Below, one piece after another: positions 2,373 through 58,636 of a DNA stretch of 64,000 nt. Both the position numbers and the translations under genes were made by a program. The notes beneath the pieces are model-generated. The model had not been told where the DNA came from. It made no database searches and worked only from the letters and a program-made list of their open reading frames with translations. How positions within the stretch are numbered: position 1 is the first letter of the stretch; each line of letters starts with the position of its first letter. The DNA is from Chrysomallon squamiferum (lineage: Eukaryota; Animalia; Mollusca). The stretch spans positions 19,096,001-19,160,000 of the forward strand of contig CM022678.1 in the NCBI GenBank assembly GCA_012295275.1. The letters run 5' to 3'.

Positions 2373-2436
2373 ATGGCTGCGAAACCAGAGCAAAGCCCAA
2401 CGACATTAGAGAAAGATTTTGGAAGGATCAAAATTG
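2373..2436 (+). CDS. Copy 1, first coding micro-exon (MAAKPEQSPTTLEKDFGRIKI + 1 nt)
   Basis: Acceptor ttttag|GATAATG upstream. The exon is 64 nt (21 codons + 1) and ends at donor GTGAGA (2437). The phase-1 join to the acceptor at 2941-2942 restores the frame of the 2975..5068 ORF. A homologous exon precedes every full-length paralog. Confidence 0.85.
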
Positions 2437-2805: not shown

Positions 2806-2942
2806 ACATTTTCTGATTAATTATCATTAATTTAAAAAAGAAGAACCAAAAGCAAAAAATTACACTTCATCTTTTAAGGAACACTCACTTTTCGATCCCT
2901 ATTTCTTCATCATCTTCGAATTGTTTTAATTTTATTTTTCAG

Positions 2943-5068
2943 CTTCAGATGAGGACATTTTCTTCGAAGGTAGATTGGAATCGTTTCCTCACTCCTTTCA
3001 TATTACAGATCTCATGTACTGCTCAAAACAGCATAGAGAAAAAATACTTAAAAAGGTGCAACGAGAACAAGAAGAAGAGAAAGGCAGTTTGATGGAAATG
3101 AATCGAGACGACAATTTTATTTCCTTCTTGCACTTTTTGCTAGGAGATACAGACTCGGCAATCCAGATAAACCTAAAAGTCTATCGTCGAGACCCTACTA
3201 ACATTGTAGCTCGTGCAAACCGTGTGCGTTTTCTGCAGAAAGTAGACGACCGTTCTGCTGAATCAGAATTAATCGAACTGGAAAACCTGGAGGGAGACCT
3301 TGACAGAATGCGTGCTGTAGCTGAAGCTGAACTTGCTTATTGCTATGCTCGAATATCACCAGCTTCTTATCCAAAGGCATTGGAGCTGTACAGAAAGGTG
3401 AATCAGAAATATCCAGAAGAATACCATTGGAAATTTGGAGAGGGTCTTACACTTAGACGATCTCTGACCGCTCAAAGCTACTCAATTCAGTCAGATGTGG
3501 GTGTCGTTGAATACGCTGTTAGAAGCTGTAAACTGCTACAAGAAGTCGGCAGTAAAGGGTCAGAACCACTGAATGCCATGGCGTATGCCGAGCTCGGGGA
3601 ATTAGCCAAGCGGCTTGAATTAAGATGGACACCATTTGAAGACACTGGGCTCGTAGAAGCGGTGCAACAACAAACTGAGCTGCTTTCGCGCGAGGAATAT
3701 TTCGAGAAAGCTCTTGATTTAGGCAAACACGTCCCCTTTGTACTTGCAAGCTGCGGTAAGCATTTCCTAAACACAAAGCAGCTGGATAAAGCTGAGAAAC
3801 GGTTAGAAGAGTCAGTCAGGCTTCTGCCAACAGGCAATGCTCTTCATCACCTGGGAAAAGTTCTTCTGAGAAAATCGAAAAATGAAACGAACAGGACAAC
3901 ATTTCAGCGTGCGATAGAAACTTTAAAACAGGCCGTTGAAATCACACACGGCGAAAACCATCCTGCAGCACTTGACTTGGCTTTAGCTTATATGAGTAAA
4001 AGACGGTATGAAGATGCTGAAATGGTTCTAAGAAATATAATAGAAAGTCCGGAAAATCCTACCAGTCCGTTCTATAAATTTTCTGCTTTGGAGAAAATGA
4101 GTATTATCTGTTTGGAGAAACAAAAAAATTGGAGACTTTCTTCAGATGAACAGGCTCGGCTGAGGAATGAAGAAATGAATTACAAAATTCTTGCTATAGA
4201 AGTTTCTGCGCCAGAAGTGCTGTATAAATATCGCACTCATTTTAGAACAGTAACTGATTTGCTGAAGGAAAGAAATCGTCCACGTGGAGTAGAAATACCG
4301 TGGGAAGTTAAAAATGTCTACGGCATGATCAGTGAATTCACCCATTCTCTTCCGATTTATGAGAAGATTCAAAATCGAAATCTGGGACTAGAAGACTGGA
4401 TTGGAATTACAGAGGAATATCTTGATGAACAAAAGTACGAAAATGCCAGACTGTGTGTAAGTCTGCTGATGGGTACGCTACAAGCTGATGACATTCCTTC
4501 CTCTCTCGTCAATAGAGTTTATCTGAAAACAGCAGAGCAGATTTTATCAAGAGGCGAGTCAGAGATTAAAGCTTGGTTTTGTTTCAGAAGGATTTTTACG
4601 TTCTATTACAAAACTAACAAAGAAGATGAAATAAACGGTGCTGATATCATGCTTCTCCATGACAAAGACGACTGGAAATCATCTCAGGTTTCAATGAAGA
4701 TTCAGGAAATTCTGGAAAACTATGCAGGTCTTGAAGTCACGAGAAATGATGAGCTGGCGTTTAATTCAGTGGATGAAGTGTTTTCTTATAGACAATTAAT
4801 GCCTCGTATTCGATGCATTCTTGTTGTTGTTAATTCCGATACGCCAAATACACATTGGAAACAAATAATTGAATTGGCAATAGCCACTGCTTCCAAAAGT
4901 GAAAAGATGATGGTTGTATGCTTGAAATCAGGAGAGACTCACCAAGTCACTGAACTGAATGATTTCAAAACAGGAAAAACTCCACCAGACGAAGCAGACG
5001 ACAAAGCTGCAGTGGACTGGCTGCTGGAAACTTTTCCACTTCTTGTTAATGCTGACGTTAATTTGTAA
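2943..5068 (+). CDS. Copy 1, main exon: IFIT/TTC22-like TPR protein with C-terminal TIR-like domain (~729 aa spliced), apparently intact
   Basis: Polypyrimidine tract + AG at 2941-2942 and an open frame to TAA at 5066-5068. TPR-type helices: AELAYCYARISPASYPKALELYRKV, FVLASCGKHFLNTKQLDKAEKRLEESV, ALHHLGKVLL, AALDLALAYMSKRRYEDAEMVLRNII. C-terminal pattern DIMLLH...LENYAGLEV..ND...RCILVVVN...HWKQIIELA...KMMVVCL. The ORF is certain; the family call is by eye. Confidence 0.85.
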
Positions 5069-15873: not shown

Positions 15874-25500
<9,627 letters not shown>

Positions 25501-26264
25501 GCCTTAAAACATATAATTATTTATTGATTTATTACAGTTTTTGTTGTTATATTTTAACTGTTATTTTGTCATCTTCTGAAAGATTTTTTTTATTTTATGA
25601 GTGCGTTTGTTTAAAAAAAAAAGAAAGATGACTGAATCAGTAACTAAGAATTTTAATCAAACAATCATCTATATATAAGCGACTGAATCAATAATAATAA
25701 TAATAATAAAATAATGATTTAAACTTATCATATTTAGTGTTTTCATCACACGCACATTATCTACATGTTATTAAGACTTTGACCGCTCAAAGTTTTATAC
25801 AGATATACACCCGTTTGTTCTGGTTGTTGCACTTTGATCAATCTTGTTGAAATAAAATCGTAAAACGAAAAATACAGTGAGAAGATTTTCAGATATCTAA
25901 CAATAAGTATTTATTATTAATAAAGGACAAAGTACGAAACTAACTAACATTTAGTAACAGAGGTTGACCACGTCAAGCTTACTTATTTAACTCATGATAT
26001 ATCTCCGGAAAAACGGCGGTCCACTACTTTTTGCGCCTCTCGTGTTAGCAGCCTATCAACGGCGCGAAATCGTTGGTTTCCGGAAAAACGTCGCGAAATC
26101 GTTGGTTTCCGGAAAAACGTCGCGTAATATAAACTTCGTGTTCTGTTAAACAGTCGGGTTTTTCAGAGACCCAAAAGGTTAAACAACCATTGTGTGAGTC
26201 TTCATTTCCAAAAACAACGTGTGTAAGTATAACGTGGCACCAAAACAGACAAAACCAATCATTA

Positions 26265-26315
<51 letters not shown>

Positions 26316-27179
26316 GTATACATGTATGTATGTGTGTATATATGTATGTATAGATAGATAGATAGATAGATAAATACTGACGGTTCGTTTCATAGTAAGC
26401 TAACTTTGATTTAAGTGTGTTTTTCCGATGAGATACTTTACTGTCCATTAAAATCAAGCTATAATTCACGAACAGTTTATTGACTATTAAGAGGTATACA
26501 CTACAAGGAACTGTAATATACAAACACACAAGAAAGAAACTACTCGTAAATCCACGTAAATGTTTTGGGAAACGGGAAGATTTTGGTGGCATCATACAAT
26601 TAGTATGTAGATAAGGGTTAGGCGAAACATTGACTTTTTTGCTTTTTACTTTATTCCTTTTTAAGCATTTTGTTCTGTGACCCAAGCATAGACAGCTACA
26701 ATTGCTCAACATTACAGAAAAAAGAAAAAATCCAACTGCAAACTAATCTATTAATAACTATTACTTCTCCCCGGTGTTCATACTCGCAATGTTTCTTACA
26801 TATTTCTGTGACCTAGATTCACACACCCGTTTCTGTATTATCATACATGGGTTGAGAACGCTCAAGATAGCTGTTGAAACTAATTAAGAGTGTATAATCT
26901 GTAGATGTCGTTGTGTTTTTAGGTTAAAAGTAGAAATACAGTAATGTTCATATTTATTTATCTATTTAGTTTTTTTATTACAATATATATATTTTTTAAT
27001 GTGTTATTTCTATTTCTTTCTCTTTCGATTTCTTTCTTCGTTTTTTATTTATTTATTTTTTATTTTCTATTTATTACTAGTATTTGCTTCTTATCCATGG
27101 CTTTTTAAATGTATGGTGTTCAATACAGATATAAGATTTAGAATATTACTAAAACATTTTATTACATACTTTTAGGAAA

Positions 27180-27246
27180 ATGACTGCGAGAAAAGAGCAA
27201 CGTACAACATCGATAGATACGGATTTTGCCAGGATAAATATTGGTG
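27180..27246 (+). CDS. Copy 2, first coding micro-exon (MTARKEQRTTSIDTDFARINIG + 1 nt)
   Basis: ttttag|GAAAATG, donor GTGAGA at 27247 (alternative in-phase GT at 27244), phase 1. Confidence 0.8.
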
Positions 27247-27403
27247 GTGAGAAATATTAATCAGGATCCGTATTATGTAGAATTACACGTTGATGTTACA
27301 TTATTCTGGTTACTTTTATAAACACGTTATTCTCTCTTTCACATATATCTACATAGAGATATCTACTTAAAAATACTAGCAAACAACCACACACATATAT
27401 AAT

Positions 27404-27502
<99 letters not shown>

Positions 27503-27648
27503 TTCGGTAAAAACAATATATTATCATTACTCATCGTCAGTTTAATAAAAAAAAAAATAAAGAAAAATCGAACTTACATCTTTAGAAAAGACTTTCACTT
27601 CAGACAATTCACATCACTTAATTTTTTTGTTATTATTATTTTTTTCAG

Positions 27649-29794
27649 GTACGGATGAGGATATCGCCTTCGAAAAGAGATTACAATCATTTCCTACTCC
27701 TTTCATCTCACAGATCTCATGTTCTACACAAAAGAGCGCAGAGAAAAACTGCTTAGAAAGTTAGAACACCGGGAAGAAGACGTACCTACTTCAGTGGGAA
27801 ATCAACCAAGTCAAAAGACACACACAAATCGTCACGACAATTTTATTTCGTTCTTGCTGTTTTTACTAGGAGATCGAGAGAAGGCAATCGAGATAAATTT
27901 AAAAGTACGTGATTGCGACCCTACTAACATTGTAGCTCGTGCAAATCGTGTGCGATTTCTGCTAAAACAGGATAAACGTTCTGCTGAATCAGAATTAGAG
28001 GAATTGGAAAACTTGGAGGGAGACCTGGACAGAATGCGTACTGTAGCTGAAGCTGAACTTGCTTCTTGCTACACTCGAATGTCACCAGCTTCTTATCCAA
28101 AGGCTCTGGAGCTGTACAGAAAAGTAAATAAGAAATGTCCAGACGAATTCGAGTGGAAATATCGAGAGGGTCTCACACTTAGACGATCTCTTTCCTTTCA
28201 AAGCTATTCAATTCAGTCAGGTATCGATGTGGTTGAATACGCTGTTAGATGCTGTAAACTGCTACAAGAAGTCAGCAGTAAGGGACCAGAACCACTGAAT
28301 GCCATGGCGTTTGCCGAGCTCGGCGAATTAGCGAAACGGCTTGAATTTGGATGGATGCCATTTGAAGATAGAAAGCTGGTAGAAGTGGTGCAGAAACAGA
28401 TTCGACTGCTTTCGGCTAAGGAATATTTGAATAAAGCTCTTGCTTTAGGCAAAAACAACCCTTTTATACTTGTAAGGTGCGGTATCCATTCCCTAAACAC
28501 AAACCAACTGGATAAGGCTGAGAGTATGTTAGAACAGTCAGTTAGTCGTAGGCGAACAACGAAAGATTTTCATCAGCTGGGAAAGATTCTACGGAAAGAG
28601 GCGAAACGAGAAAATAACCCGGAAACATTAGATCGTGCCATTGACTGTCTAAAGGACGCGGTTCGAATAACGCGAAGCGAAAATTATACTGCAGTTTTAG
28701 ACTTGGCTTTAGCTTACATGAGTAAACAATGCTACGAAGATGCAGAACAGCACTTCAAAATTATAACAGAAAGGGCTAATACTTATACAGATCCATTCCC
28801 AGAAATTAGCGCTTTGAAAAATATGAGTTTTATCTATTTTGATAAAGGTAACAATTGGAGACTTTCTCCAGAGGAAGAGACTCGGCTGAAGAAAGAAGAA
28901 ATGAATTATAAAAGTCTTGCTGTAGAAGCTTCTGCAACAGAAGTACTGTACAAATATCGCACTCATTTTAGAACAGTAACTGATTTGCTGAAACAAACGA
29001 AAGGTCCACGTGGAGTAAAACTACCGTGGCAAGTTAAAGATGTTTACTGTATGATCAGTGAATTCGCCCCTTCTCTTCCGATTTATGAGAAGATTCAGAA
29101 CCGAAATCTGGGATCACAAAACTGGATTGCAATTACAGAGGAATATCTCAACCAACAAAAATACGAAAATGCCAGACTGTGTGTAAGTCTGCTGATGGGT
29201 ACGCAACAAGCTGATGACATTCCTTCCTCTCTTGTCAGTAGAGTTTACCTGAAAACAGCAGAGCAGATCTTATCAAGAGGCGAGTCACCGGGTAGAGCTT
29301 GGTCTTGTTTCAGAAGGATTTTTACGTTCTATTACAAAACGAACAAACAAGATGAAATAAACGGTGCTGATATCATGATTCTGCATGACAAAGACGACGG
29401 GGAAATATCTCAGATTTCAGTGAAGATTCAAAAAATTCTAGAAAACTATACAGGTCTAAAAATCACAAGAAATGATGAACTTGCCTTTGTAGAAATGAAT
29501 GAAATATCTTTCTACCAACAACTGATGCCTCTTATTCGATGCGTTGTCGTAGTTGTTAATTCCGATACGCCAAGCGCACACTGGAAACAGGTCATTGATT
29601 TGGCGATAGCAACTGCTACCAAAAATGAGAAGATGATGATTGTATACTTGAAATCAGGAGAGACTCACGAAATCACTGAACTGAACAATTTCAAAACAGG
29701 AAAAACTCCACCAGACGAAGCAGACGACAAAGCTGCAGTGGACTGGCTGCTGGAAACTTTTCCACTTCTTGTTAATGCTGACGGCAATTTGTAA
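27649..29794 (+). pseudogene. Copy 2, main exon: TPR-TIR-like paralog with a 1-nt frameshift near the 5' end (young pseudogene, null allele or assembly error)
   Basis: Acceptor tttttcag at 27647-27648. The sequence reads tttcctactcc where the other copies read tttcctcactcc (C missing after 27695), so the spliced frame stops at TAG 27762-27764. The 691-aa ORF from ATG 27719 is otherwise intact. Confidence 0.75.
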
Positions 29795-29873
29795 ATTTGA
29801 ACATTTACCGATCTTCACAAGATTTTGAACTGAACTGTATAGATTGTTCGACTTTATTAATGAAAATAATAAT

Positions 29874-29911
<38 letters not shown>

Positions 29912-30259
29912 CAACAACAATAATAATAGTCACATGAAGATGATCGGCAACAAAAACAATTATGCTAATAAATATATTTATATTACGATTCATTCTCCAG
30001 AATGCTTGAACTAGAAATGTTTTCGAGTACTGAATTTTTCAGTTTTAAGAATATGAAACGAAGGTAGGAAAATACGGTGTCTTTCTGAAATCTAAATCTG
30101 TTGTTAGATCGTACCGATATACATATCTTAAAAATTAAATCTACGTATACAGGTTGTACAGACGGTCTACACTTATTTTAATATATTTTTCAATAACTTT
30201 ATGGTTGAAATTAAATTTGTGTAATCTAAATTGTAATATAGGAATCATGGCTTATTTGT

Positions 30260-30425
30260 AATATAATATAATGTAATATAATATAATATAATATAATATA
30301 ATATAATATAATATAATATAATATAATATAATATAATATAATATAACATAAAATAATATAATATAATATAATATAATATAATATAATATAATATTACATA
30401 ACATAATATAATATAATATAATATA
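30260..30425. repeat. (ATATA)n pentanucleotide microsatellite in the putative 3' UTR of copy 2
   Basis: Directly visible; much shorter in the duplicate at ~45290-45345. Confidence 0.9.
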
Positions 30426-31713: not shown

Positions 31714-31773
31714 ATGGCTTCGAAAACAGAGCTAAGCACAACGTCATTAGAGGCGGGATTTCAAAGAATAAAG
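31714..31773 (+). pseudogene. Orphan first exon (MASKTELSTTSLEAGFQRIK) with the donor lost, fused to (GA)n
   Basis: ttttag|GATAATG context and clear peptide homology to the other first exons. No GT donor and no main exon downstream. Confidence 0.8.
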
Positions 31774-36706: not shown

Positions 36707-36906
36707 NNNNNNNNNNNNNNNNNNNNNNNNNNNNNNNNNNNNNNNNNNNNNNNNNNNNNNNNNNNNNNNNNNNNNNNNNNNNNNNNNNNNNNNNNNNNNN
36801 NNNNNNNNNNNNNNNNNNNNNNNNNNNNNNNNNNNNNNNNNNNNNNNNNNNNNNNNNNNNNNNNNNNNNNNNNNNNNNNNNNNNNNNNNNNNNNNNNNNN
36901 NNNNNN
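36707..36906. other. Assembly gap (200 N)
   Basis: Run of N. Confidence 1.
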
Positions 36907-37780
36907 ATTTTCTATTTTTCTTACGTACAATCAGTAGACTTGCTATTTCTAAACGTGTTCACTGAAACGAATATATGTATGTGGCTCGTTTTTCTAATTC
37001 CACGAAAATTAGTCACATGTGCTCTGACTTTGTGTAATCACGTTCGCGAAAATTAATAGTTAAATTACGTAGAAAATAAATATATAAAGTTACCATTAAA
37101 ATATTGATTTCACATCCCATTTCTAAATACGTTCATTCATTCAGCATCTAGTTACACAAACCTGATACATTCCACGAAAATTACTGATGCGTGGTGTCAC
37201 TTTATTTAACCACCTTTACTAAATAACAAAATTTCGAGTTAGAATTAAAAGAAATATATCTTATTCAGAATTTTATTTAGTTTTATATCTCTGCAGATTA
37301 CAACACTGAGAAGAAAAACAGATGATGATGATGATGATGATGATGATGATAATAATAATAATAATAATAATAATAGTAGTAGTAGTAATTATAACAATAA
37401 TAATGTCACATCCAGTTTTCTCTGGCATTCCAAATAATATTTTCTTTAGTATTTAAACTTAAACGGAATAATACAGTATTAGGAGTATTTAAATAATGGG
37501 AAGGTAAATATTTTTCTTTTAATTATTATTATTTTTCTGCATTATTAAATATAGTTGATATAGTTTAACTTGTGCATAAAAATATAAAATTCATTCATTA
37601 TATATTCAAGTTATAACCACCAGGAAATGTAATGTACAAATACACAAGAAGCAAATAACACAAACTTCATCTTAGTTCAGAAAAGACAAGTTCACATAAA
37701 TTGATGCGAAGGTTTTCTGAAAGAAATAGAATTTTCACACCCTACTGATAATTACGATTTATAGAAGCGTGCGGGAAAAA

Positions 37781-37822
<42 letters not shown>

Positions 37823-38691
37823 CATTACTTTTTATTTTTTTTATTTTTTCTTACTTTCAAAATCGATTCTTATTCAGCGCGCGCTACTGGACTCTCCATG
37901 GTTTGACTTTGGAAACTTGCCAAAAAGGTATGTCGCAGTGTTGTCAAAAGGTGTCGCCACTGTATTGAAGTTCAAGGTAGACATTTTGAACAATTGTAAA
38001 AACTAAATACAGAGATTAAATTTGTTGTTTTTAATTTTATTTAAGTTTCCGGATCGGTTACGTTAGGGACACACTGTATTTCTCACATCCTCACTGGTCT
38101 CTTTACTCGCTATAGCTCTTCATATTTCAATGACCTAGTTTCGCACACCCGTTTGTGTTTCTGTATTGTTATAGACCGGCTGATGGCTGTGATATTTTGA
38201 TTCTTCTTTTTCTTCTTCTTCTTCTTCTTCTTCTTCTACTTCTTTTTCTTCTTATTATTATGATTATTATTATTTGCTGTAAACAGTTTTCACACAGTAG
38301 ACATGGCAGTTCTCGATGTTTTCATTGATGCCAATATTTATCGTATTTCTCAAATTTCACGAGAATTAGTCACGTGTGCTTTGACTTTGTTTAATCACCT
38401 TCGCGAAATTAATAGTGAAATTATACACAAAACAAATATATAAATTTAGCATTAAATTTGATATGTGACATCGCATTTCTAAATATGTTCATTCATCCAG
38501 TATCACAAGTCACATAAATTCGCGGAACGAACGTAAACCTCATCTTCTACTTCCACGGAATTTCTAATGCGTAAATTCAGTTTGTTTAATCACGTTTACT
38601 AAATAAATAAATTTAGTGGAAAATACTGTTAGCATTAAAACAAAATCTTATGAACATTATTATTATTAATATTATTATTACTATTATTATT

Positions 38692-38727
<36 letters not shown>

Positions 38728-41218
38728 ATTGTTGTTGTTGTAGTTGTTATTTGCTGCAAACTGTTTCATACAGCTGACATGGTTTTTCTCGATGTGTTAC
38801 TTGGTTCGAATATTTAGCATATTTCTCGAATTTCATGAGAATTAGTCACGTTTTCGTTGACTTTTTAAAATCATATTCACGAAAGTTAATAGCTAAACTA
38901 GTCAGAAAATAAATGAATAAAGTTTGCTTAAAATCTGGTATTTCACATTTCTAAATGCTTTGATCAACCAGTATCTAGTTACACAAACAAGATATTGGCT
39001 GAACGAATGTATACCTTGTTCTTCTATTACTGATGCGTGGTTTCACTTTGTTTAATCACGTTTACTAAATAACATTACCTTATCAGATAACTTCCTTTAT
39101 ATACTTTAGCTAGTTTTGTTTTACCTATTTTTTGAGTTTCAATAAGTAAAGTAGACACCTGATATATATAAAACTGAAAAGGTAAAGCTATCCCAGTTTC
39201 TGACCGTTCGTTTGAAAGTAAGGAACATCCAGCCAGAACGTGTAAGTTTGATTTAAATTTTGTTATTAGGATCAGATACTAAATATTAAGGTTATATTTT
39301 ATTCATTACTTGTGAATTAAAATATTAAATTCATTCATTATATATTCAAGTTATAACTACCAGAAAATGTAATGTACAAATACTCAGGTAGCAAATAACA
39401 CAAACTTCATCTTAGTTCAGAAAAGACAAGTTCACATAAATTGATGCGAAGGTTTTCTGAAACCAACAGGGTTTTGATAGCCTAATGAAAGTTAATATTT
39501 ATAGAACCGTGAAGGAAAAAATAATATTATTATTATTATTTTTATCATTATAACTATTATTATTATTAGTAGTAGTAGTAGTAGTAGTAGTATATATTTT
39601 TTTTACTTTTAAAATCAAAACGCAGGTCATTTCTGAAACAAACACAATACAGCTGTAACTCCTCAAAATAATATAAAAAGAAAAACAAATGCTACTAAAA
39701 ACTGTTTAGTAAATACTTATTATGTCTCCCGCGTCTCTTTACTGTCTATATTTCATGTATATTTCAATGACCTAATTTCGCACACACGTTTTTGTTCCTG
39801 CAGTGTTTCATGTCGCTTATAGGTGCGATATTTTTGATTCATATAAAAGTGATTAACGTGTAGAATTGTTGATCCTAGTGTTTTTGGATAACAAAATCGA
39901 AATATGAGTTGTGTATAGGTTAGGATTAGTTCAAGCGAGGGAAACATGTTTTTTTTTTTTTTTTTTTTTTTTACATAGTCACAGAGTTCAGAAAGTAGAC
40001 ATGATATTTCTAAACGTGTTCGTTGATCCGAATACATGAACATAGCTTATTTTTCTACTTCCACGAAAATTAGTCATGTGTCCTGTGACTTTGTGTGATC
40101 ACGTTCGCCAAAATTAATTGATATATCACGTTTCTAAATATGTTCATTCATCCAGCTGAAGGAATGAAAACTTTAAAACAAGATCTTGTAAATTGACGGG
40201 AATCTTGTTTATTTTTTATTTTTGTAAGGTCAGAACAATGGGAAGGTTTTTGTAAGAGTAAGATTTTGATGGCCTAATAAAAGATTAGTATTTCTTTTTT
40301 TAATTATTATTTTATTTTTTGCATTATTAAATTTAATATTTAGAAACATGTAATTTCGTTCATTATTCTTTGACCCAACCTATGAGGGGTAAGGAACATT
40401 CACAGAGAAAGTGTAAGTTTGATTTAAGTTTTGTTATTACTATCATTATATTAGACATTTAAATAATGTTTCATTCATCACTTGTGCCTTAAAACATATA
40501 ATTATTTATTGATTTATTACAGTTTTTGTTGTTATATTTTAACTGTTATTTTGTCATCTTCTGAAAGATTTTTTTTATTTTATGAGTGCGTTTGTTTAAA
40601 AAAAAAGAAAGATGACTGAATCAGTAACTAAGAATTTTAATCAAACAATCATCTATATATAAGCGACTGAATCAATACTAATAATAATAATAAAATAATG
40701 ATTTGAACTTATCATATTTAGTGTTTTCATCACACGCACATTATCTACATGTTATTAAGACTTTGACCGCTCAAAGTTTTATACAGATATACACCCGTTT
40801 GTTCTGGTTGTTGCACTTTGATCAATCTTGTTGAAATAAAATCGTAAAACGAAAAATACAGTAAGAAGATTTTCAGATATCTAACAATAAGTATTTATTA
40901 TTAATAAAGGACAAAGTACGAAACTAGCTAACATTTAGTAACAGAGGTTGACCTCGTCAAGCTTACTTATTTAACTCATGATATATCTCCGGAAAAACGG
41001 CGGTCCACTACTTTTTGCGCCTCTCGTGTTAGCAGCCTATCAACGGCGCGAAATCGTTGGTTTCCGGAAAAACGTCGCGTAAGGTAAACTTCGTGTTCTG
41101 TTAAACAGTCGGGTTTTTCAGAGACCCAAAAGGTTAAACAACCATTGTGTGAGTCTTCATTTCCAAAAACAACGTGTTAAGTATAACGTGACACCAAAAC
41201 AGACAAAACCAAACATTA

Positions 41219-41283
<65 letters not shown>

Positions 41284-42147
41284 GTATACATGTATGTATG
41301 TGTGTATATATGTATGTACAGAGAGATAGATAGATAGATAAATACTGACGGTTCGTTTCATAGCAAGCTAACTTAGATTTAAGTGTGTTTTCCCGATGAG
41401 ATACTTTACTGTCCATTAAAATCAAGCTATAATTCACGAACAGTTTATTGACTATTAACAGGTATACACTACAAGGAAGTGTAATATACAAACACACAAG
41501 AAAGAAACTACTCGTAAATCCATGTAAATGTTTTGGGAAACGGGACGATGTTGGTGGCATAATACAATTAGTATTTAGATAAGGGTTAGGCGAAACATTG
41601 ACTTTTTTGCTTTTTACTTTATTCCTTTTTAAGCATTTTGTTCTGTGACCCAAGCATAGACAGCTACAATTGCTCAACATTACAGAAAAAATAAAAAATC
41701 CAACTACAAACTAATCTATAAATAACTATTACTTCTCCCCGGTGTTCATACTCGCAATGTTTCTTACATATTTCTGTGACCTAGATTCACACACCCGTTT
41801 CTGTATTATCATACATGGGTTGATAACACTCAAGATAGCTGTTGAAACTAATTAAGAGTGTATAATCTGTAGATGTCGTTGTGTTTTTAGGTTAAAAGTA
41901 GAAATACAGTAATGTTCATATTTATTTGTCTATTTAGTTTTTTTATTACAATATATATATTTTTTAATGTGTTATTTCTATTTCTTTCTCTTTCGATTTC
42001 TTTCTTCGTTTTTTATTTATTTATTTTTTATTTTCTATTTATTACTAGTATTTGCTTCTTATCCATGGCTTTTTAAATGTATGGTGTTCAATACAGATAT
42101 AAGATTTAGAATATTACTAAAACATTTTATTACATACTTTTAGGAAA

Positions 42148-42214
42148 ATGACTGCGAGAAAAGAGCAAAGTACAACATCGATAGATACGGATTTTGCCAG
42201 GACAAATATTGGTG
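42148..42214 (+). CDS. Copy 3, first coding micro-exon (MTARKEQSTTSIDTDFARTNIG + 1 nt)
   Basis: ttttag|GAAAATG, donor GTGAGA at 42215; phase 1 matches the acceptor at 42645-42646. Confidence 0.83.
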
Positions 42215-42401
42215 GTGAGAAATATTTAATCAGGATCCGTATTATGTAGAATTACACGTTGATGTTACATTACTCTGGTTACTTTTATAAACACGTTATT
42301 CTCTCTGTCACATATATCTGCATAGAGATATCTACTTAAAAATACTAGCAAACAACCACACACGTATATAATTATCAGAGAGAGAGTGAGAGAAAGAGGG
42401 A

Positions 42402-42505
<104 letters not shown>

Positions 42506-42646
42506 CGGTAAAAACAATATATTATCATTACTCATCGTCAGTTTAATAAAAAAAATAAAGAAAAATCGAACTTACATCTTTAGAAAAGACTTTCACTTCA
42601 GACAATTCACATCACTTAATTTTTTTGTTATTATTATTTTTTTCAG

Positions 42647-44793
42647 GTACGGATGAGGATATCGCCTTCGAAAAGAGATTACAATCATTTCCTCACTCCT
42701 TTCATCTGACAGATCTCATGTTCTACACAAAAGAGCGCAGAGAAAAACTGCTTAGAAAGTTAGAACACCGGGAAGAAGACGTACCTACTTCAGTGGGAAA
42801 TCAACCAAGTCAAAAGACACACACAAATCGTCGCGACAATTTCATTTCGTTCTTGTTGTTTTTACTAGGAGATCGAGAGAAGGCAATCGAGATAAATTTA
42901 AAAGTGCGTGATTGCGACCCTACTAACATTGTAGCTCGTGCAAATCGTGTGCGATTTCTACTAAAACAGGATAAACGTTCTGCTGAATCAGAATTAGAGG
43001 AATTGGAAAACTTGGAGGGAGACCTGGACAGAATGCGTACTGTAGCTGAAGCTGAACTTGCTTCTTGCTACACTCGAATGTCACCAGCTTCTTATCCAAA
43101 GGCTCTGGATCTGTACAGAAAAGTAAATAAGAAATGTCCAGATGAATTCGAGTGGAAATATCGAGAGGGTCTAACACTTAGACGATTTCTGTCCTTTCAG
43201 AGTTATGCAATTCAATCAGGTGTCGATATTGTTGAAAACGCTGTTAGATGCTGTAAACTGCTACAAGAAGTCAGCAGTGAGGGACCAGAACCATTTAATG
43301 CCATGGCATATGCCGAGCTTGGGGAATTAGCGAAACGGCTTGAATTTGGATGGATGCCATTTGAAGATAGAAAGCTGGTAGAAGTGGTGCAGAAACAGAT
43401 TCGACTGCTTTCGGCTAAGGAATATTTGAATAAAGCTCTTGCTTTAGGCAAAAACAACCCTTTTATACTTGTAAGGTGCGGTATCCATTCCCTAAACACA
43501 AACCAACTGCATAAGGCTGAGAGTATGTTAGAACAGTCAGTTAGTCGTAGGCGAACAACGAAAGATTTTCATCAGCTGGGAAAGATTCTACGGAAAGAGG
43601 CGAAACGAGAAAATAACCCGGAAACATTAGATCGTGCCATTGACTGTCTAAAGGAGGCGGTTGGAATAACGCGAAGCGAAAATTATACTGCGGTTTTAGA
43701 CTTGGCTTTAGCTTACATGAGTAAACAATGCTACGAAGATGCAGAACAGCACTTCAAAATTATAACAGAAAGGGCTAATACTTATACAGATCCATTCCCA
43801 GAAATTAGCGCTTTGAAAAATATGAGTTTTATCTATTTTGAGAAAGGTAACAATTGGAGACTTTCTCCAGAGGAACAGACTCGGCTGAAGAAAGAAGAAA
43901 TGAATTATAAAAGTCTTGCTGTAGAAGCTTCTGCAACAGAAGTACTGTACAAATATCGCACTCATTTTAGAACAGTAACTGATTTGCTGAAACAAACGAA
44001 AGGTCCACGTGGAGTAAAACTACCGTGGCAAGTTAAAGATGTTTACTGTATGATCAGTGAATTCGCCCCTTCTCTTCCGATTTATGAGAAGATTCAGAAC
44101 CGAAATCTGGGATCACAAAACTGGATTGCAATTACAGAGGAATATCTCAACCAACAAAAATACGAAAATGCCAGACTGTGTGTAAGTCTGCTGATGGGTA
44201 CGCAACAAGCTGATCACGTTCCTTCTTCTCTCGTCAGTAGAGTTTACTTGAAAACAGCACAGCAGATCTTATCTAGAGTCGAGTCACCGGGTAAAGCTTG
44301 GTCTTGTTTCAGAAGGATTTTTACGTTCTATTACAAAACGAACAAACAAGATGAAATAAACGGTGCTGATATCATGATTCTCCATGACAAAGACGACGGG
44401 GAAATATCTCAGATTTCAGTGAAGATTCAAAAAATCCTAGAAAACTATACAGGTCTAAAAATCACAAGAAATGATGAACTTGCCTTTGTAGAAATGAATG
44501 AAATATCTTTCTACCAACAACTGATGCCTCTTATTCGATGCGTTGTCGTAGTTGTTAATTCCGATACGCCAAGCGCACACTGGAAACAGGTGATTGATTT
44601 GTCAATAGCAACTGCTACCAAAAATGAGAAGATGATGATTGTATGCTTGAAATCAGGAGAGACTCACCGTGTCACTGAACTGAATAATTTCAAAACAGGA
44701 AAAACTCCACCAGACGAAGCAGACGACAAAGCTGCAGTGGACTGGCTGCTGGAAACTTTTCCACTTCTTGTTAATGCTGACGGCAATTTGTAA
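42647..44793 (+). CDS. Copy 3, main exon: IFIT/TTC22-like TPR + TIR-like protein (~737 aa spliced), apparently intact
   Basis: Acceptor ttttttcag|GTACGGATGAGGAT and an uninterrupted frame to TAA 44791-44793. Collinear with copy 1. Confidence 0.85.
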
Positions 44794-44863
44794 ATTTGAA
44801 CATTTACAGATCTTCACAAGATTTTGAACTGAACTGTATGGATTGTTCGACTTTATTAATGAA

Positions 44864-44937
<74 letters not shown>

Positions 44938-45673
44938 CAACAACAACAATAATAATAGTCGCATGAAGATGATCGGCAAGAAAAACAATTATGCTAATAA
45001 ATATATTTATATTACGATTCCTTCTCCAAAATGCTTGGACTGGAAATGTTTTCGAGTACTGAATTTTTCAGTTTTTAGAATATGAAACGAAGGTAGGAAA
45101 ATACGGTGTCTTTCTGAAATCTAAATCTGTTGTTAGATCGTACAAATATATATAGCTTAAAAATTAAATCTACGTATACAGGTTGTACAGACGGTATACA
45201 CTTATTTTAATATATTTTTCAATAACTTTATGGTTGAAATGAAATTTGTGTAATCTAAATTGTTATATAAGAATCATGGCTTATTTGTAATATAATATAG
45301 AATCTATAATAGAAAATAATATAATATAATATAATATAATATATGTTTTTGTGTATCTGTCTGTCTATATCTATATATAAAGTAATTATGCTTGAATAAA
45401 ATGCTGATTTAGAGAATCCTTTTCTGTTTTTATTGTTTTGTGTGTAATTGTGACTCCAGGTTAGTGAATTGTGTGAATGACAAAATCTTTTTATGTGAAT
45501 AGTTTTTGGTAATTTTGTAATTTAGAGTTGGAAGAGTTAGAAGTCTTATTTTTATGTAAATAGCTTTGTGTGAGGTTACTGTCATCATGTGAAATGTCTA
45601 CACCAACCCTTTGAGTTTTTCACCTTCAAGTGCTTTTTAATAATACAAATTAATAATAATAATAATAATACAA

Positions 45674-46802: not shown

Positions 46803-47200
46803 ACATTGTAGCTCGTGCAAACAGTGTGGGTTTTCTGCAGAAAGAGGACGATCGTTCTTATGAATCAGAATTAATCGAACTGGAAAACATGAAGGGAGAC
46901 TTTGACAGAATGCGTGCTGTAGCTGAAGCTGAACTTGCTTATTGCTAGTCTGAACTAACATCAGCTTCTTATCCAAAGGCTCTCGAGCTGCACCGAAAAG
47001 TAAATGAAAAATATCCAGAAGAACACTACTGAAAATTTGAAGAAGGTCTAACTGTTAGATGATCGCTGTCCCTTCAAAGCTGTTCGTTTCAGTCACCTAC
47101 CGATATCGTTGAATTCGCTGTTAGATGCTAAGAACTGCTACAGGAAGTCGGCAGTAAGGGACCAGAACCATTAAATACCATCGCTCATTCCGGGCTTGGG
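46803..47200 (+). pseudogene. Internal fragment of the main exon with multiple stops
   Basis: Homologous to the IVARAN...GPEPLN segment. In-frame TAG at 46946-46948, TGA at 47030-47032 and further stops; truncated at both ends. Confidence 0.92.
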
Positions 47201-49595: not shown

Positions 49596-52042
49596 ATGGC
49601 TGCGAAAGCAGAACAAAGCACAGCATCATTACGTAAGGATTTTGCAAGGATAAAAATTGGTAAGAAATACTAGCTACAGTGATAATGAGACATTATGGTA
49701 ATACCATCTTCAGCTGTCATTCTTCTGCTTCTTTTTATAAATACGATATTCAGTAAACAAAATATTTTCTGATTTATTAGCTTTAACCTTTAAAAAAATA
49801 ACAAAAAACAATAAGACGAAAAAAAAAGAAGACAAAAAAAGCAAAACAGACAGACAAACACAGAAAAGAGAAGAAAAATTAGCACTTCATATTTGTAAGT
49901 TCACACTTTTTTCCATTGGCATTGCTTCGCCAACTACTAATTACTTATATTTTACTCTTTAGATGCAGATGAGGACACTCTCTGAAAAGAGACTGGAATC
50001 GTTTCCTCACTCCTTTCATCTTACTGATCTCATGTTCTGCTCAAAACAGCGAAGACAAAAAATACTTGAACTATTACAACGAGAACATGAACAAGCGAAA
50101 CGAAGTTTGATGAACACAAATCGAGACAACAATTTTATTTCTTTCTTGCACTATTTACTAGGAGATCGAGAGAAGGCAATCGAGATAAACCTAAAAGTCC
50201 GTCATCGAGACGCTACTAACATTGTAGCTCGTGCAAACCGTGTGCGTTTTCTGCAGAAAGTAGACGACCGTTCTGCTGAATCAGAATTAATCGAACTGGA
50301 AAACCTGGAGGGAGACTTTGACAGAATGCGTGCTGTAGCTGAAGCTGAACTTGCCTATTGCTACTCTGAACTAACACCAGCTTCTTATCCAAAGGCTCTG
50401 AAGTTGTACAGAAAAGTAAATCAGAACTATCCGGAAGAATACGAATGGAAATTTGGAGAGGGTCTAACACTTAGACGATCTCTGTCTATTCATAGCTATT
50501 CAATTCAGTCAGGTATCGACATGGTAGAATACGCTGTTAGATGCTGTAAACTGCTACAAGAAGTCAGCAGTAAGGGACCAGAACCATTGAATGTCATGGC
50601 GTATTCCGAGCTCGGGGAATTATCCAAGCTGCTTGAATTAAGACGGACTCCATTGGAAGATGAAATGCTGGTAGAAGAGGTGCAGCAATAAACTGGTCTG
50701 CTTTCGCAAGAGGAATATTTCCAGAAAGTTCTTGATTTAGGCAAAGACGACGCTTTTATACTTGTAAGGTTCGCTAACCATTTTGTAAACACACAGCAAC
50801 TGGATGAGGCTGAGAAAATGTTACAACAGTCAGTTAGTCGTAGGCGAACAACGAAAGCTCTTCATCAGCTGGGAAAGGTTCTGCGGAAAAAAGCGAAACA
50901 AAAAGACAGCACGAGAACATTAGATCGTGCCATTGACTGTCTAAAGGAGGCGGTTCGAATAACGCAAAGCGAAAATTATACTGGAATATTAGACTTAGCT
51001 TTAGCTTATATGAGTAAAACATGCTACGAAGATGCTGAACAGCACTTCAAAATTGTAACAGATACAGCCGATACTAATACCGAACCATTCTCACAAATTA
51101 CCGCACTGAAAAATATGAGCTTTATTTATTTTGAAAAAAGTGAAAATTGGAGACTTTCTCCAGAGGAAAAGACTCGGCTGAAGAAAGAAGAAATGAATTA
51201 TAAAATTCTTGCTGTAGAAGCTTCTGCTTCAGAAGTGGTGTATAAATATCGCACTCATTTTAGAACAGTAACTGATTTGTTAAAGCAAACGAAATATCCA
51301 CTTGGGGTAGAAATACCGTGGCAAGTTAAAGATGTCTACTGTATGATCAGTAAATTCGCTCCTTCTCTTCCAGTTTATGAGCGAAATCTGGGATCACAAG
51401 ACTGGATAGCAATTACAGAGGAATATCTTAATCAACAAGAATACGAAAATGCCAGACTGTCCGTCAGTCTGCTGATGTGTACGCAACAAGCTGATCACGT
51501 GCCTTCTCTCGTCAATCGAGTTTACTTGAAAACAGCACAGCAGATCTTATCAAGAGGCGAGTCACCGAGTAAAGCTTCGTCTTGTTTCAGAAGGATTTTT
51601 ACGTTCTATTACAAAACTAACAAAGAAGATGAAATAAATGGTGCTGACGTCATGATTCTCCATGACAAAGACGATTGGAAAATATCTCAGATTTCCAATA
51701 AAATTCAGGAAATTCTGAAAAATTATACCGGTCTGAAAGTCACAAGAAATGATGAACTTGCCTTTGAAGGAATGAATGAAATCTTTTTCTGCAAACAACT
51801 GATGCCTCTTATTCGATGCATTGTTGTAGTTGTTAATTCCGATACGCCAAACCCACACTGGAAACTGCAACAGCAACTGCTACCAAAAAAGAGAAGATGA
51901 TGATTGTAAGCTTGAAATCAGGAGAGACTCACCAAGTCACTGAACTGAATGATTTCCACCAGAGGATGCAGACGACAAAGCTGCAGTGGACTGGCTGCTG
52001 GAAACTTTTCCACTTCTTGTTAATGCTGACGTCAATTTGTAA
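49596..52042 (+). pseudogene. Copy 5: full-length pseudogene (exon 49596-49659 MAAKAEQSTASLRKDFARIKI; exon 49963-52042)
   Basis: Splice sites are intact (GTAAGA at 49660, AG at 49961-49962). Lesions: frameshift at ~49980 (spliced frame GAC ACT CTC TGA), CAA>TAA at 50689-50691, a 12-nt deletion (KIQN), a ~13-nt deletion at ~51865 and a ~16-nt deletion at ~51955. Confidence 0.92.
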
Positions 52043-57881: not shown

Positions 57882-57945
57882 ATGGCTGCGAAGAAACAGC
57901 ACAGCACAACGTCATTAGACGCGGATTTTGCAAGGATAAAAATTG
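57882..57945 (+). CDS. Copy 6, first coding micro-exon (MAAKKQHSTTSLDADFARIKI + 1 nt)
   Basis: ctttcag|GATAATG, 64 nt, donor GTGAGA at 57946. Confidence 0.82.
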
Positions 57946-58282
57946 GTGAGAAATTCTAGTTACAATGATAATGAAACAATTGTATTTTGTTGCATTACTG
58001 CTTCATGCGAAACTGTTCTACTTTTTTACATAAACGCGTTATTCTCTCTCTTACAGATATTTATATTCAGACATCTGAATAAAAACACAGACATACGCAG
58101 ACACACACACATAATTATACAAAAAAGATGGCAAGAGAGACATTCAGTAAATGAAGCATTATGTGATTACGAATCTGCAATTTTAAAAGAAAACAATTTC
58201 GAACATCTTATCTTTAGAAAGGTACTTTTCCCCCGAAGTTATTCTTTCAGAAATCTGCAATTATGTAGATTTTATTTTTCAG

Positions 58283-58436
58283 CTACGGATGAGGACATTT
58301 CCTTGGAAAATAGACTGGAATCGTTTCCTCACTCCTTTCATCTCACAGATGTCATGCTCTGCACTAAACAACGTAGAGAAAAAATACTTGTAAAGTTACA
58401 ACGAGAACCGGAAGAAGAGAAACAGATGGAAAGAAA
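58283..58436 (+). CDS. Copy 6, start of the main exon, truncated by an assembly gap
   Basis: tttttcag|CTACGGATGAGGAC encodes TDEDISLENRLESFPHSFHLTDVMLCTKQRREKILVKLQREPEEEKQMER, in phase with exon 1. Intactness of the remainder is unknown. Confidence 0.8.
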
Positions 58437-58636
58437 NNNNNNNNNNNNNNNNNNNNNNNNNNNNNNNNNNNNNNNNNNNNNNNNNNNNNNNNNNNNNNNN
58501 NNNNNNNNNNNNNNNNNNNNNNNNNNNNNNNNNNNNNNNNNNNNNNNNNNNNNNNNNNNNNNNNNNNNNNNNNNNNNNNNNNNNNNNNNNNNNNNNNNNN
58601 NNNNNNNNNNNNNNNNNNNNNNNNNNNNNNNNNNNN
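58437..58636. other. Assembly gap (200 N), probably hiding ~2 kb or more of copy 6
   Basis: Run of N inside a coding exon; the family's 3'-flank sequence resumes at ~60730. Confidence 0.95.

Follow-up and report, generated by a model that had tools for sequence, protein, structure and literature searches.

IFIT-like proteins with a C-terminal TIR domain, predicted to be non-catalytic, are encoded by a tandem gene cluster in Chrysomallon squamiferum

The gene described here is found near the start of the window, a 64,000-nucleotide stretch of the genome of the mollusc Chrysomallon squamiferum, and encodes a protein that is predicted to fold like the vertebrate IFIT proteins and to end in a TIR domain of the TLR/IL-1R type. 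Judged from the models, its mode of action is likely that of an IFIT with a TLR-type TIR built in. Because the TIR forms the C-terminus of a protein with the predicted fold of antiviral IFITs, we read it as an RNA sensor, in which the IFIT-like clamp would bind the 5' end of foreign RNA and the signal would come from TIR-TIR assembly, not from NAD+ cleavage. We give this reading a probability of about 55%. In such a mechanism, the basic channel of a cytosolic sensor would take in the 5' end of a foreign single-stranded RNA, and the RNA-bound sensor molecules would cluster. The clustered TIRs, with themselves or with an adaptor, would nucleate a scaffold that might drive antiviral gene expression of the NF-kB/IRF type.

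The window consists of animal DNA that is rich in AT and in microsatellites, and no tRNA was found in it. The gene, copy 1 of the cluster, comprises two coding exons. A 712-codon open reading frame (2930-5068) carries at its 3' end the TIR domain picked out by a preliminary description of this DNA, and exon 2 supplies nearly all of a spliced product of about 729 amino acids. The features of copy 1 are as follows.

2373..2436, + strand: first coding exon, beginning with ATG, 21 codons plus 1 nucleotide, with a phase-1 GT donor at 2437
2943..5068, + strand: second exon, an open reading frame, with loose contig ends at 2942 and 2948
2954..4612, + strand: IFIT-like TPR body (model residues 2-554)
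3350..3352, + strand: R134, equivalent of IFIT5 K150 (K or R in 77 of 88 relatives)
3458..3460, + strand: R170, equivalent of IFIT5 R186 (K or R in 79 of 88 relatives, more than in any other basic column)
4634..5053, + strand: TIR domain of the TLR/IL-1R type, predicted to be non-catalytic (AlphaFold pLDDT 87.9; Z 14.8 to the IL-1RAcPb TIR)
4865..4867, + strand: Ile where NADase TIRs have their catalytic Glu, according to profile alignments (Val in copies 2 and 3)
4871..4873, + strand: the flagged Glu (GAA), at +2 from the catalytic position and on the polar face of alphaC according to column composition and helical phase

Two-exon splicing of copy 1 is seen directly in contigs. In runs X1, X4 and X8, the last labelled as RNA, contigs that lead into exon 2 have a loose end that is the 3' end of the exon at 2373-2436. 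In-frame splice acceptors are present at 2943 and 2949, 6 nucleotides apart, and both are used in contigs of public runs. Because a 341-nucleotide contig of run X1 is identical to window positions 4608-4948, the Glu at 4871-4873 is not an assembly error. No exact match to the copy 1 TIR or to copy 3 was found among the listed pieces of the RNA-labelled runs; a spliced close paralogue of copies 2 and 3 is present in run X4. The window has 29 matches to a loose ISRE pattern, a count to be read with the permissiveness of the pattern and the AT-richness of the DNA.

Copy 1 belongs to a tandem cluster in which all copies are on the + strand and intact and broken members are mixed. The other members within the window are listed below.

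27180..29794, + strand: copy 2, with ATG at 27180, exon 2 from about 27650, an open reading frame at 27659-29794 and the alphaC Asp at 29597
42148..44793, + strand: copy 3, with an intact frame, an open reading frame at 42559-44793 and the alphaC Asp at about 44596
46805..47200, + strand: decayed fragment of a further copy, with internal stops
49596..52042, + strand: pseudogene copy, with its first exon near 49596, an in-frame stop at 50689-50691 and a further frameshift near 51956
57882..58436, + strand: another copy, represented by its first exon and the start of exon 2, which ends at an assembly gap at 58437

The block that carries copy 2 (21936-30315) is duplicated at 36908-45343, where it carries copy 3, with 96-97% identity and a spacing of about 15 kb; the two blocks may be two loci or two haplotypes. 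An assembly gap (36707-36906) adjoins the duplicated block. Relative to copy 3, copy 2 has a 1-nucleotide deletion near 27695 (27691-27696), early in exon 2, that breaks the spliced frame; copy 2 may be a recent pseudogene, or the deletion may be an error of the assembly. At 31714-31760, a copy of the first exon runs into a GA repeat without a donor, and no second exon was found directly behind it. Loose contig ends indicate further paralogues outside the window. One run X4 contig from such a paralogue differs over 4752-4904, the alphaB-alphaC region.

In layout, this arrangement resembles that of vertebrate IFIT genes, which likewise consist of a short first exon and one large exon and occur in tandem clusters (PMC3688568, as far as its accessible text goes). 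In contrast, the first exon of copy 1 codes for 64 nucleotides and ends in phase 1, whereas in mammals it contributes only the ATG and 2 nucleotides (same source and scope); a non-coding exon may also precede it in copy 1.

The TPR body is predicted to have an IFIT-specific architecture over the full IFIT length. Among natural proteins in the PDB, the best matches of a full-length family profile are IFIT1 and IFIT5 (E about 1e-32), and profile positions 3-546 are colinear with IFIT1 7-472. The same profile also retrieves shark IFIT5-like proteins. With an N-terminal profile, shark IFITs score 60.6 and 55.5 bits over positions 3-176, against at most 28.3 bits for 19 other TPR proteins; NCBIfam gives generic TPR matches only. 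An AlphaFold model of the full protein, made with no templates and no IFIT in the alignment, has pLDDT 91.5 and pTM 0.90. In VIA, it superposes on RNA-bound IFIT5 (4hot, with pppRNA) with Z 28.8 and rmsd 5.8 over 441 aligned residues, spanning 6-481 of the chain. The first 13 VIA rows are all IFITs and the best other TPR protein reaches Z 16.1, and IFIT5 holds rank 1 in a separate ranking. AlphaFold may have learned IFIT shapes, and an rmsd of 5.8 to IFIT5 is high; sequence identity to IFITs is only about 14-15%.

The conserved basic residues of the family agree in part with those of IFIT5. Only 7 of 789 family columns have K or R in at least 75% of sequences, and the basic columns ranked 1, 2, 3 and 5 are the equivalents of IFIT5 R186, K150, R260 and K257. 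These four residues contact RNA in IFIT5, according to the accessible parts of PMC9677429 (Table 5) and PMC13197388. Among 88 relatives, K or R is present at the K150 equivalent in 77, at R186 in 79, at K257 in 67 and at R260 in 77. The equivalent of R253 is not kept family-wide. Copies 1 to 3 retain the equivalents of K150, Y156, R186 and H287, and all three have Leu at the R260 equivalent and Ala or Val at R253. The TPR part of copy 1 has a net charge of -6. Many relatives, P0002, P0136 and P0147 among them, have after profile position 320 or so, midway in the IFIT-like body, a long low-complexity, often basic insertion that the window copies lack.

These residues bear on the strongest alternative, in which an IFIT-shaped protein-binding scaffold, comparable to TTC22 or to IFIT3 in its role as a partner, is joined to a non-catalytic TIR and forms a signalling adaptor instead of an RNA sensor. 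We consider this unlikely. The loss of the R260 and R253 equivalents in the window copies and the acidity of the copy 1 TPR part would suit an adaptor, as would a putative likeness of the N-terminus to TTC22. However, the most conserved basic columns of the family are the very positions at which IFIT5 contacts RNA, and copies 1 to 3 retain four equivalents of the IFIT site. Given this putative resemblance and database entries that join vertebrate TTC22 with a TIR, TTC22 could be the true orthologue, which would lower the novelty of the family. The accessible text of PMC13693868 describes TTC22 as a protein-interaction TPR protein.

The C-terminal domain is predicted to be a TIR of the TLR/IL-1R type, with a five-stranded, flavodoxin-like fold. 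The preliminary description had called it TIR/SEFIR-like from a series of motifs (DIMLLH, LENYAGLEV, NDELAF, RCILVVVN, HWKQIIELA and KMMVVCL), which do occur in that order in the open reading frame 2930-5068, the first within GADIMLLHD. Pfam finds no family at E<=10 for any of the window copies (0 of 3 domains), and single-sequence TIR queries retrieve nothing from the PDB or the protein collection (0 of 530 candidates). With a 90-row alignment, AlphaFold predicts the domain at pLDDT 87.9 with an alternating order of strands and helices, so that the structure prediction proposed in that description returns a flavodoxin-like TIR. All 50 structural matches listed by VIA-align are TIR or SEFIR chains, led by the IL-1RAcPb TIR (Z 14.8, rmsd 2.6, 135 aligned residues) and including IL-18Rbeta (14.4), SARM1 (13.9), SPARTA (13.8) and RUN1 (12.7). 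This comparison was drawn from the top 1000 of Foldseek, which puts a flavodoxin first by E-value and gives its best TM-scores to TIRs. A 30-row domain profile matches TLR15 (E 1.5e-9), oyster TIR-STING (1e-8), TLR1, TLR6 and MyD88. The TIR part of the earlier assignment thus holds, and its SEFIR part does not: the SEFIR chains rank 47 and 50 among the 50 matches (Z 11.3-11.5), and the profile reaches only E 1.2 against SEFIR, compared with 1.5e-9 for TLR15. At E<=1, Pfam TIR_2 is matched by 15 of 30 family members (best 3.3e-8), and its cut-off is passed by two amphioxus members. One of the 30 members matches the ThsB models of PADLOC, weakly, and a plasmid tblastn for canonical TIRs gave 3 matches, at chance level.

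The combination of the two parts is widespread. A word-index search with the whole protein gave one relative, and a HMMER scan gave 267 at E<=0.001, of which the best 150 were examined. An iterated profile finds a C-terminal TIR in 100 of these 150; 40 of the 50 relatives that lack it are shorter than 650 amino acids, and these are probably partial sequences. Among the matches listed, no named relative is closer than two Gigantopelta proteins, which have 37-40% identity. In a quick tree, this pair and one further protein group with the window copies (SH-aLRT 99). Across the 15 named of 21 clusters, the IFIT-TIR fusion is found in gastropods, bivalves, hemichordates, amphioxus and lamprey. Both parts are present in the gastropods Gigantopelta, Haliotis, Babylonia, Batillaria and Patella, and also in Tegillarca, Pinctada, Saccoglossus, Glandiceps, Branchiostoma and lampreys. 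Of these TIRs, the one from lamprey matches least well, with E 1.5e-9 in the iterated profile and no Pfam TIR match, and a Bradybaena protein failed the domain filter. The Batillaria protein P0010 (1941 amino acids) has five matched stretches, with a TIR near 620-750 and apparently another at the C-terminus; it probably represents tandem copies fused in the gene model. Two shark IFITs lie on a branch of length 2.55 in an open fork of the quick tree (53 rows, no outgroup). Because of the extra TIR domain, and because the tree leaves IFIT unplaced, we do not file the family as IFIT.

Assembly of TIR adaptors depends on the BB-loop, according to the part of PMC9153377 that is accessible. The BB-loop of copy 1 reads NDELAFNS, and its Pro-Gly (4745-4770) is absent from all window copies and from the three closest relatives; P0008, P0009 and P0002 lack it. 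This absence in the gastropod subclade would fit a second alternative, in which the protein is an IFIT-type effector or decoy that sequesters RNA ends, and its TIR serves self-assembly or damps TLR/MyD88 signalling. On the other hand, the TIR is retained in two thirds of the relatives examined, those that lack it being mostly short, and the family partly keeps the DxxPG motif (D in 49-51, P in 39 and G in 55-56 of 100). We therefore regard an effector or decoy as improbable, more so than an adaptor. Because residues of the IFIT site and the BB-loop Pro-Gly are lost, the window copies in particular may bind RNA or MyD88-type adaptors poorly.

NADase TIRs need a Glu in alphaC, and many TIRs that lack it function by assembly (PMC9153377, accessible part). 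The preliminary description had observed a Glu five residues after a Trp in copy 1, an Asp in copies 2 and 3 and a deletion in the pseudogene, and had suggested that the copies might therefore differ in output, enzymatic versus scaffold. The observations are correct: the Trp is at 4856-4858 and the Glu (GAA) at 4871-4873, copies 2 and 3 both read HWKQVIDL, and a 13-nucleotide deletion after 51865 takes QVIDL out of the alphaC of the pseudogene near 49963-52039 and shifts the frame. The suggested difference in output does not follow, in that Ile4865, or Val in copies 2 and 3, is predicted to occupy the catalytic position, and E4871 to lie at +2 on the other face of the helix. The same description had itself called NADase activity uncertain, and that doubt was justified.

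The register is given by several alignments. W4856 does not correspond to the W of WxxxE but to the residue after it (C, V or S). In HMMER alignments to TLR15 and TIR-STING, H4853 corresponds to the W, I4865 to the E, I4868 to L or M, E4871 to +2 and A4877 to A; one TLR1 alignment shows a different register again. As a bacterial reference, we used 27 TIR_2 domains, with E in the conserved column of 25 (omitted were L005 and 3 of 30 loci, two with internal stops and one from a genome marked unpublished). Against these 27 domains, HH-suite puts Ile4865 on the catalytic E (Prob 97.8). The catalytic E falls on I4865 in 25 of 25 with mafft --add, and with hmmalign in 13 of 25, compared with 4 of 25 on E4871. 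In the joint alignment by E-INS-i, 23 of 25 instead have their catalytic E over E4871, and in L-INS-i and G-INS-i it falls in a gap. Among six alignment methods, then, one disagrees with the I4865 register and two are uninformative, and because the register varies with the method, alignment alone is not unanimous.

Column composition and helical phase point to the helix face of the I4865 register. The W, I, I and A columns are hydrophobic in 86-95% of 100 relatives, and E occupies the catalytic column, whichever of the neighbouring Ile residues is taken for it, in 0-1 of the 100. The E4871 column is only 4-6% hydrophobic (E 28-29, D 14, N 12, Q 11-12 of 100; also S, K and G), and the Gigantopelta protein P0008 also has E there. 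In ungapped threading on the bacterial helix, r is 0.77 in the I4865 register but -0.74 in that of E4871, which only 1 of 1000 bootstraps favours. Most bootstraps (962 of 1000) choose H4853, which is one helical turn away from I4865 and on the same face, and which sits at the start of the alphaC helix in the model. Because the best ungapped register is H4853, the helical turn is fixed by the gapped alignments only. The six closest sequences hardly separate the I register from the E register, with scores of 3.19 and 2.46. In betaA, bacterial TIRs have F in 27 of 27 and S in 26 of 27, whereas S is found in 0 of 100 relatives, and the window copies read M-L-L-H. This Ser has a role in NAD binding.

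E4871 is thus predicted to lie on a polar face of the helix, away from the catalytic position. Because the flagged Glu is off that predicted position, no copy is likely to be an enzyme, and all copies are most probably non-enzymatic TIRs. That E4871 is a displaced catalytic residue, with copy 1 an NADase and the Asp copies scaffolds, is highly improbable, as is any NADase activity by way of this residue: the E-INS-i register, the resemblance of ELAIA to an ELxxA motif and the E or D found in the E4871 column of 42-43 of 100 relatives speak for it, but that register matches columns that are 92-95% hydrophobic with polar positions, and the conserved Ala with a K/E/R column, and it fails in threading. 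In addition, the betaA Ser is absent throughout the relatives, and the E4871 column accepts N, Q, S, K and G, its +2 counterpart being E or D in 12 of 27 bacterial TIRs. That some copies have E and others D is predicted to reflect an ordinary surface substitution, of little importance in itself. Purifying selection acts on the TIR (dN/dS of 0.37-0.42 for copy 1 versus copies 2 and 3). The dN between copies peaks in residues 231-400 (0.32-0.33), and a functional difference among copies is more likely to reside in this middle region of the sensor, where divergence is greatest.

The family can be compared with several known systems. Like vertebrate IFIT1 and IFIT5, it has the predicted fold and a colinear profile match over the whole IFIT length and keeps basic equivalents of K150, R186, K257 and R260; unlike them, it has a C-terminal TIR and does not keep R253. 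It shares with the TIRs of TLRs, IL-1R and MyD88 the predicted fold, the best profile matches, the family BB-loop motif DxxPG and the expectation of no catalytic role. However, its TIR is predicted to be cytosolic and C-terminal to an IFIT-like body and lacks the serine of FISY/FVSY, and the window copies lack the BB-loop Pro-Gly. The NADase TIRs (SARM1, plant TNL, SPARTA TIR-APAZ and Thoeris ThsB) share the fold, and SPARTA also shares the logic of a nucleic-acid sensor joined to a TIR, but the family has Ile or Val for the catalytic Glu and the window copies have Leu for the betaA Ser. Oyster TIR-STING, the second-best PDB match of the domain profile, is likewise an invertebrate fusion of a sensor with a TIR whose vertebrate counterpart lacks the TIR; it differs in its sensor and in a TIR that keeps W-x-x-x-E.

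Beside TTC22, the ecTIR-DC families and the TIR-TPR class of mollusc genome surveys are among the nearest known groups. Such a class is given for oyster (PMC4346834), and a TIR-plus-TPR class is among the abbreviations of an Aplysia study (PMC9334734), as far as the accessible parts of both go. Two members from amphioxus reach the cut-off of Pfam TIR_2, so some members of the family may already have been counted in such classes. The term "ifit" occurs 0 times in the accessible main text of PMC4346834. No prior description of an IFIT-TIR fusion was found in the literature listings and article passages searched.

In the accessible text of PMC3688568, IFITs are described as having arisen with interferon in jawed vertebrates and as confined to them, and BLAST candidates from acorn worm, amphioxus and lamprey are rejected. 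Returning to the reading as an RNA sensor, we tentatively propose, at somewhat less than even odds, that an IFIT-TIR receptor for RNA 5' ends, signalling by its own TIR and spread across bilaterians, gave rise to vertebrate IFITs and survives in molluscs, hemichordates, amphioxus and lamprey. Jawed vertebrates would have dropped the TIR and turned the upstream sensor into an interferon-induced effector, and molluscs would have expanded a set of fast-turnover cytosolic RNA receptors beside RLRs and TLRs. If this is true, the origin of IFIT would move back to early bilaterians, and its ancestral job would be that of a receptor, not an effector. The upstream parts of the interferon-like antiviral response of molluscs are incompletely known (PMC9334734, on Aplysia, accessible part). 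If the reading holds, the family would name candidate sensors for this response that are directly testable.
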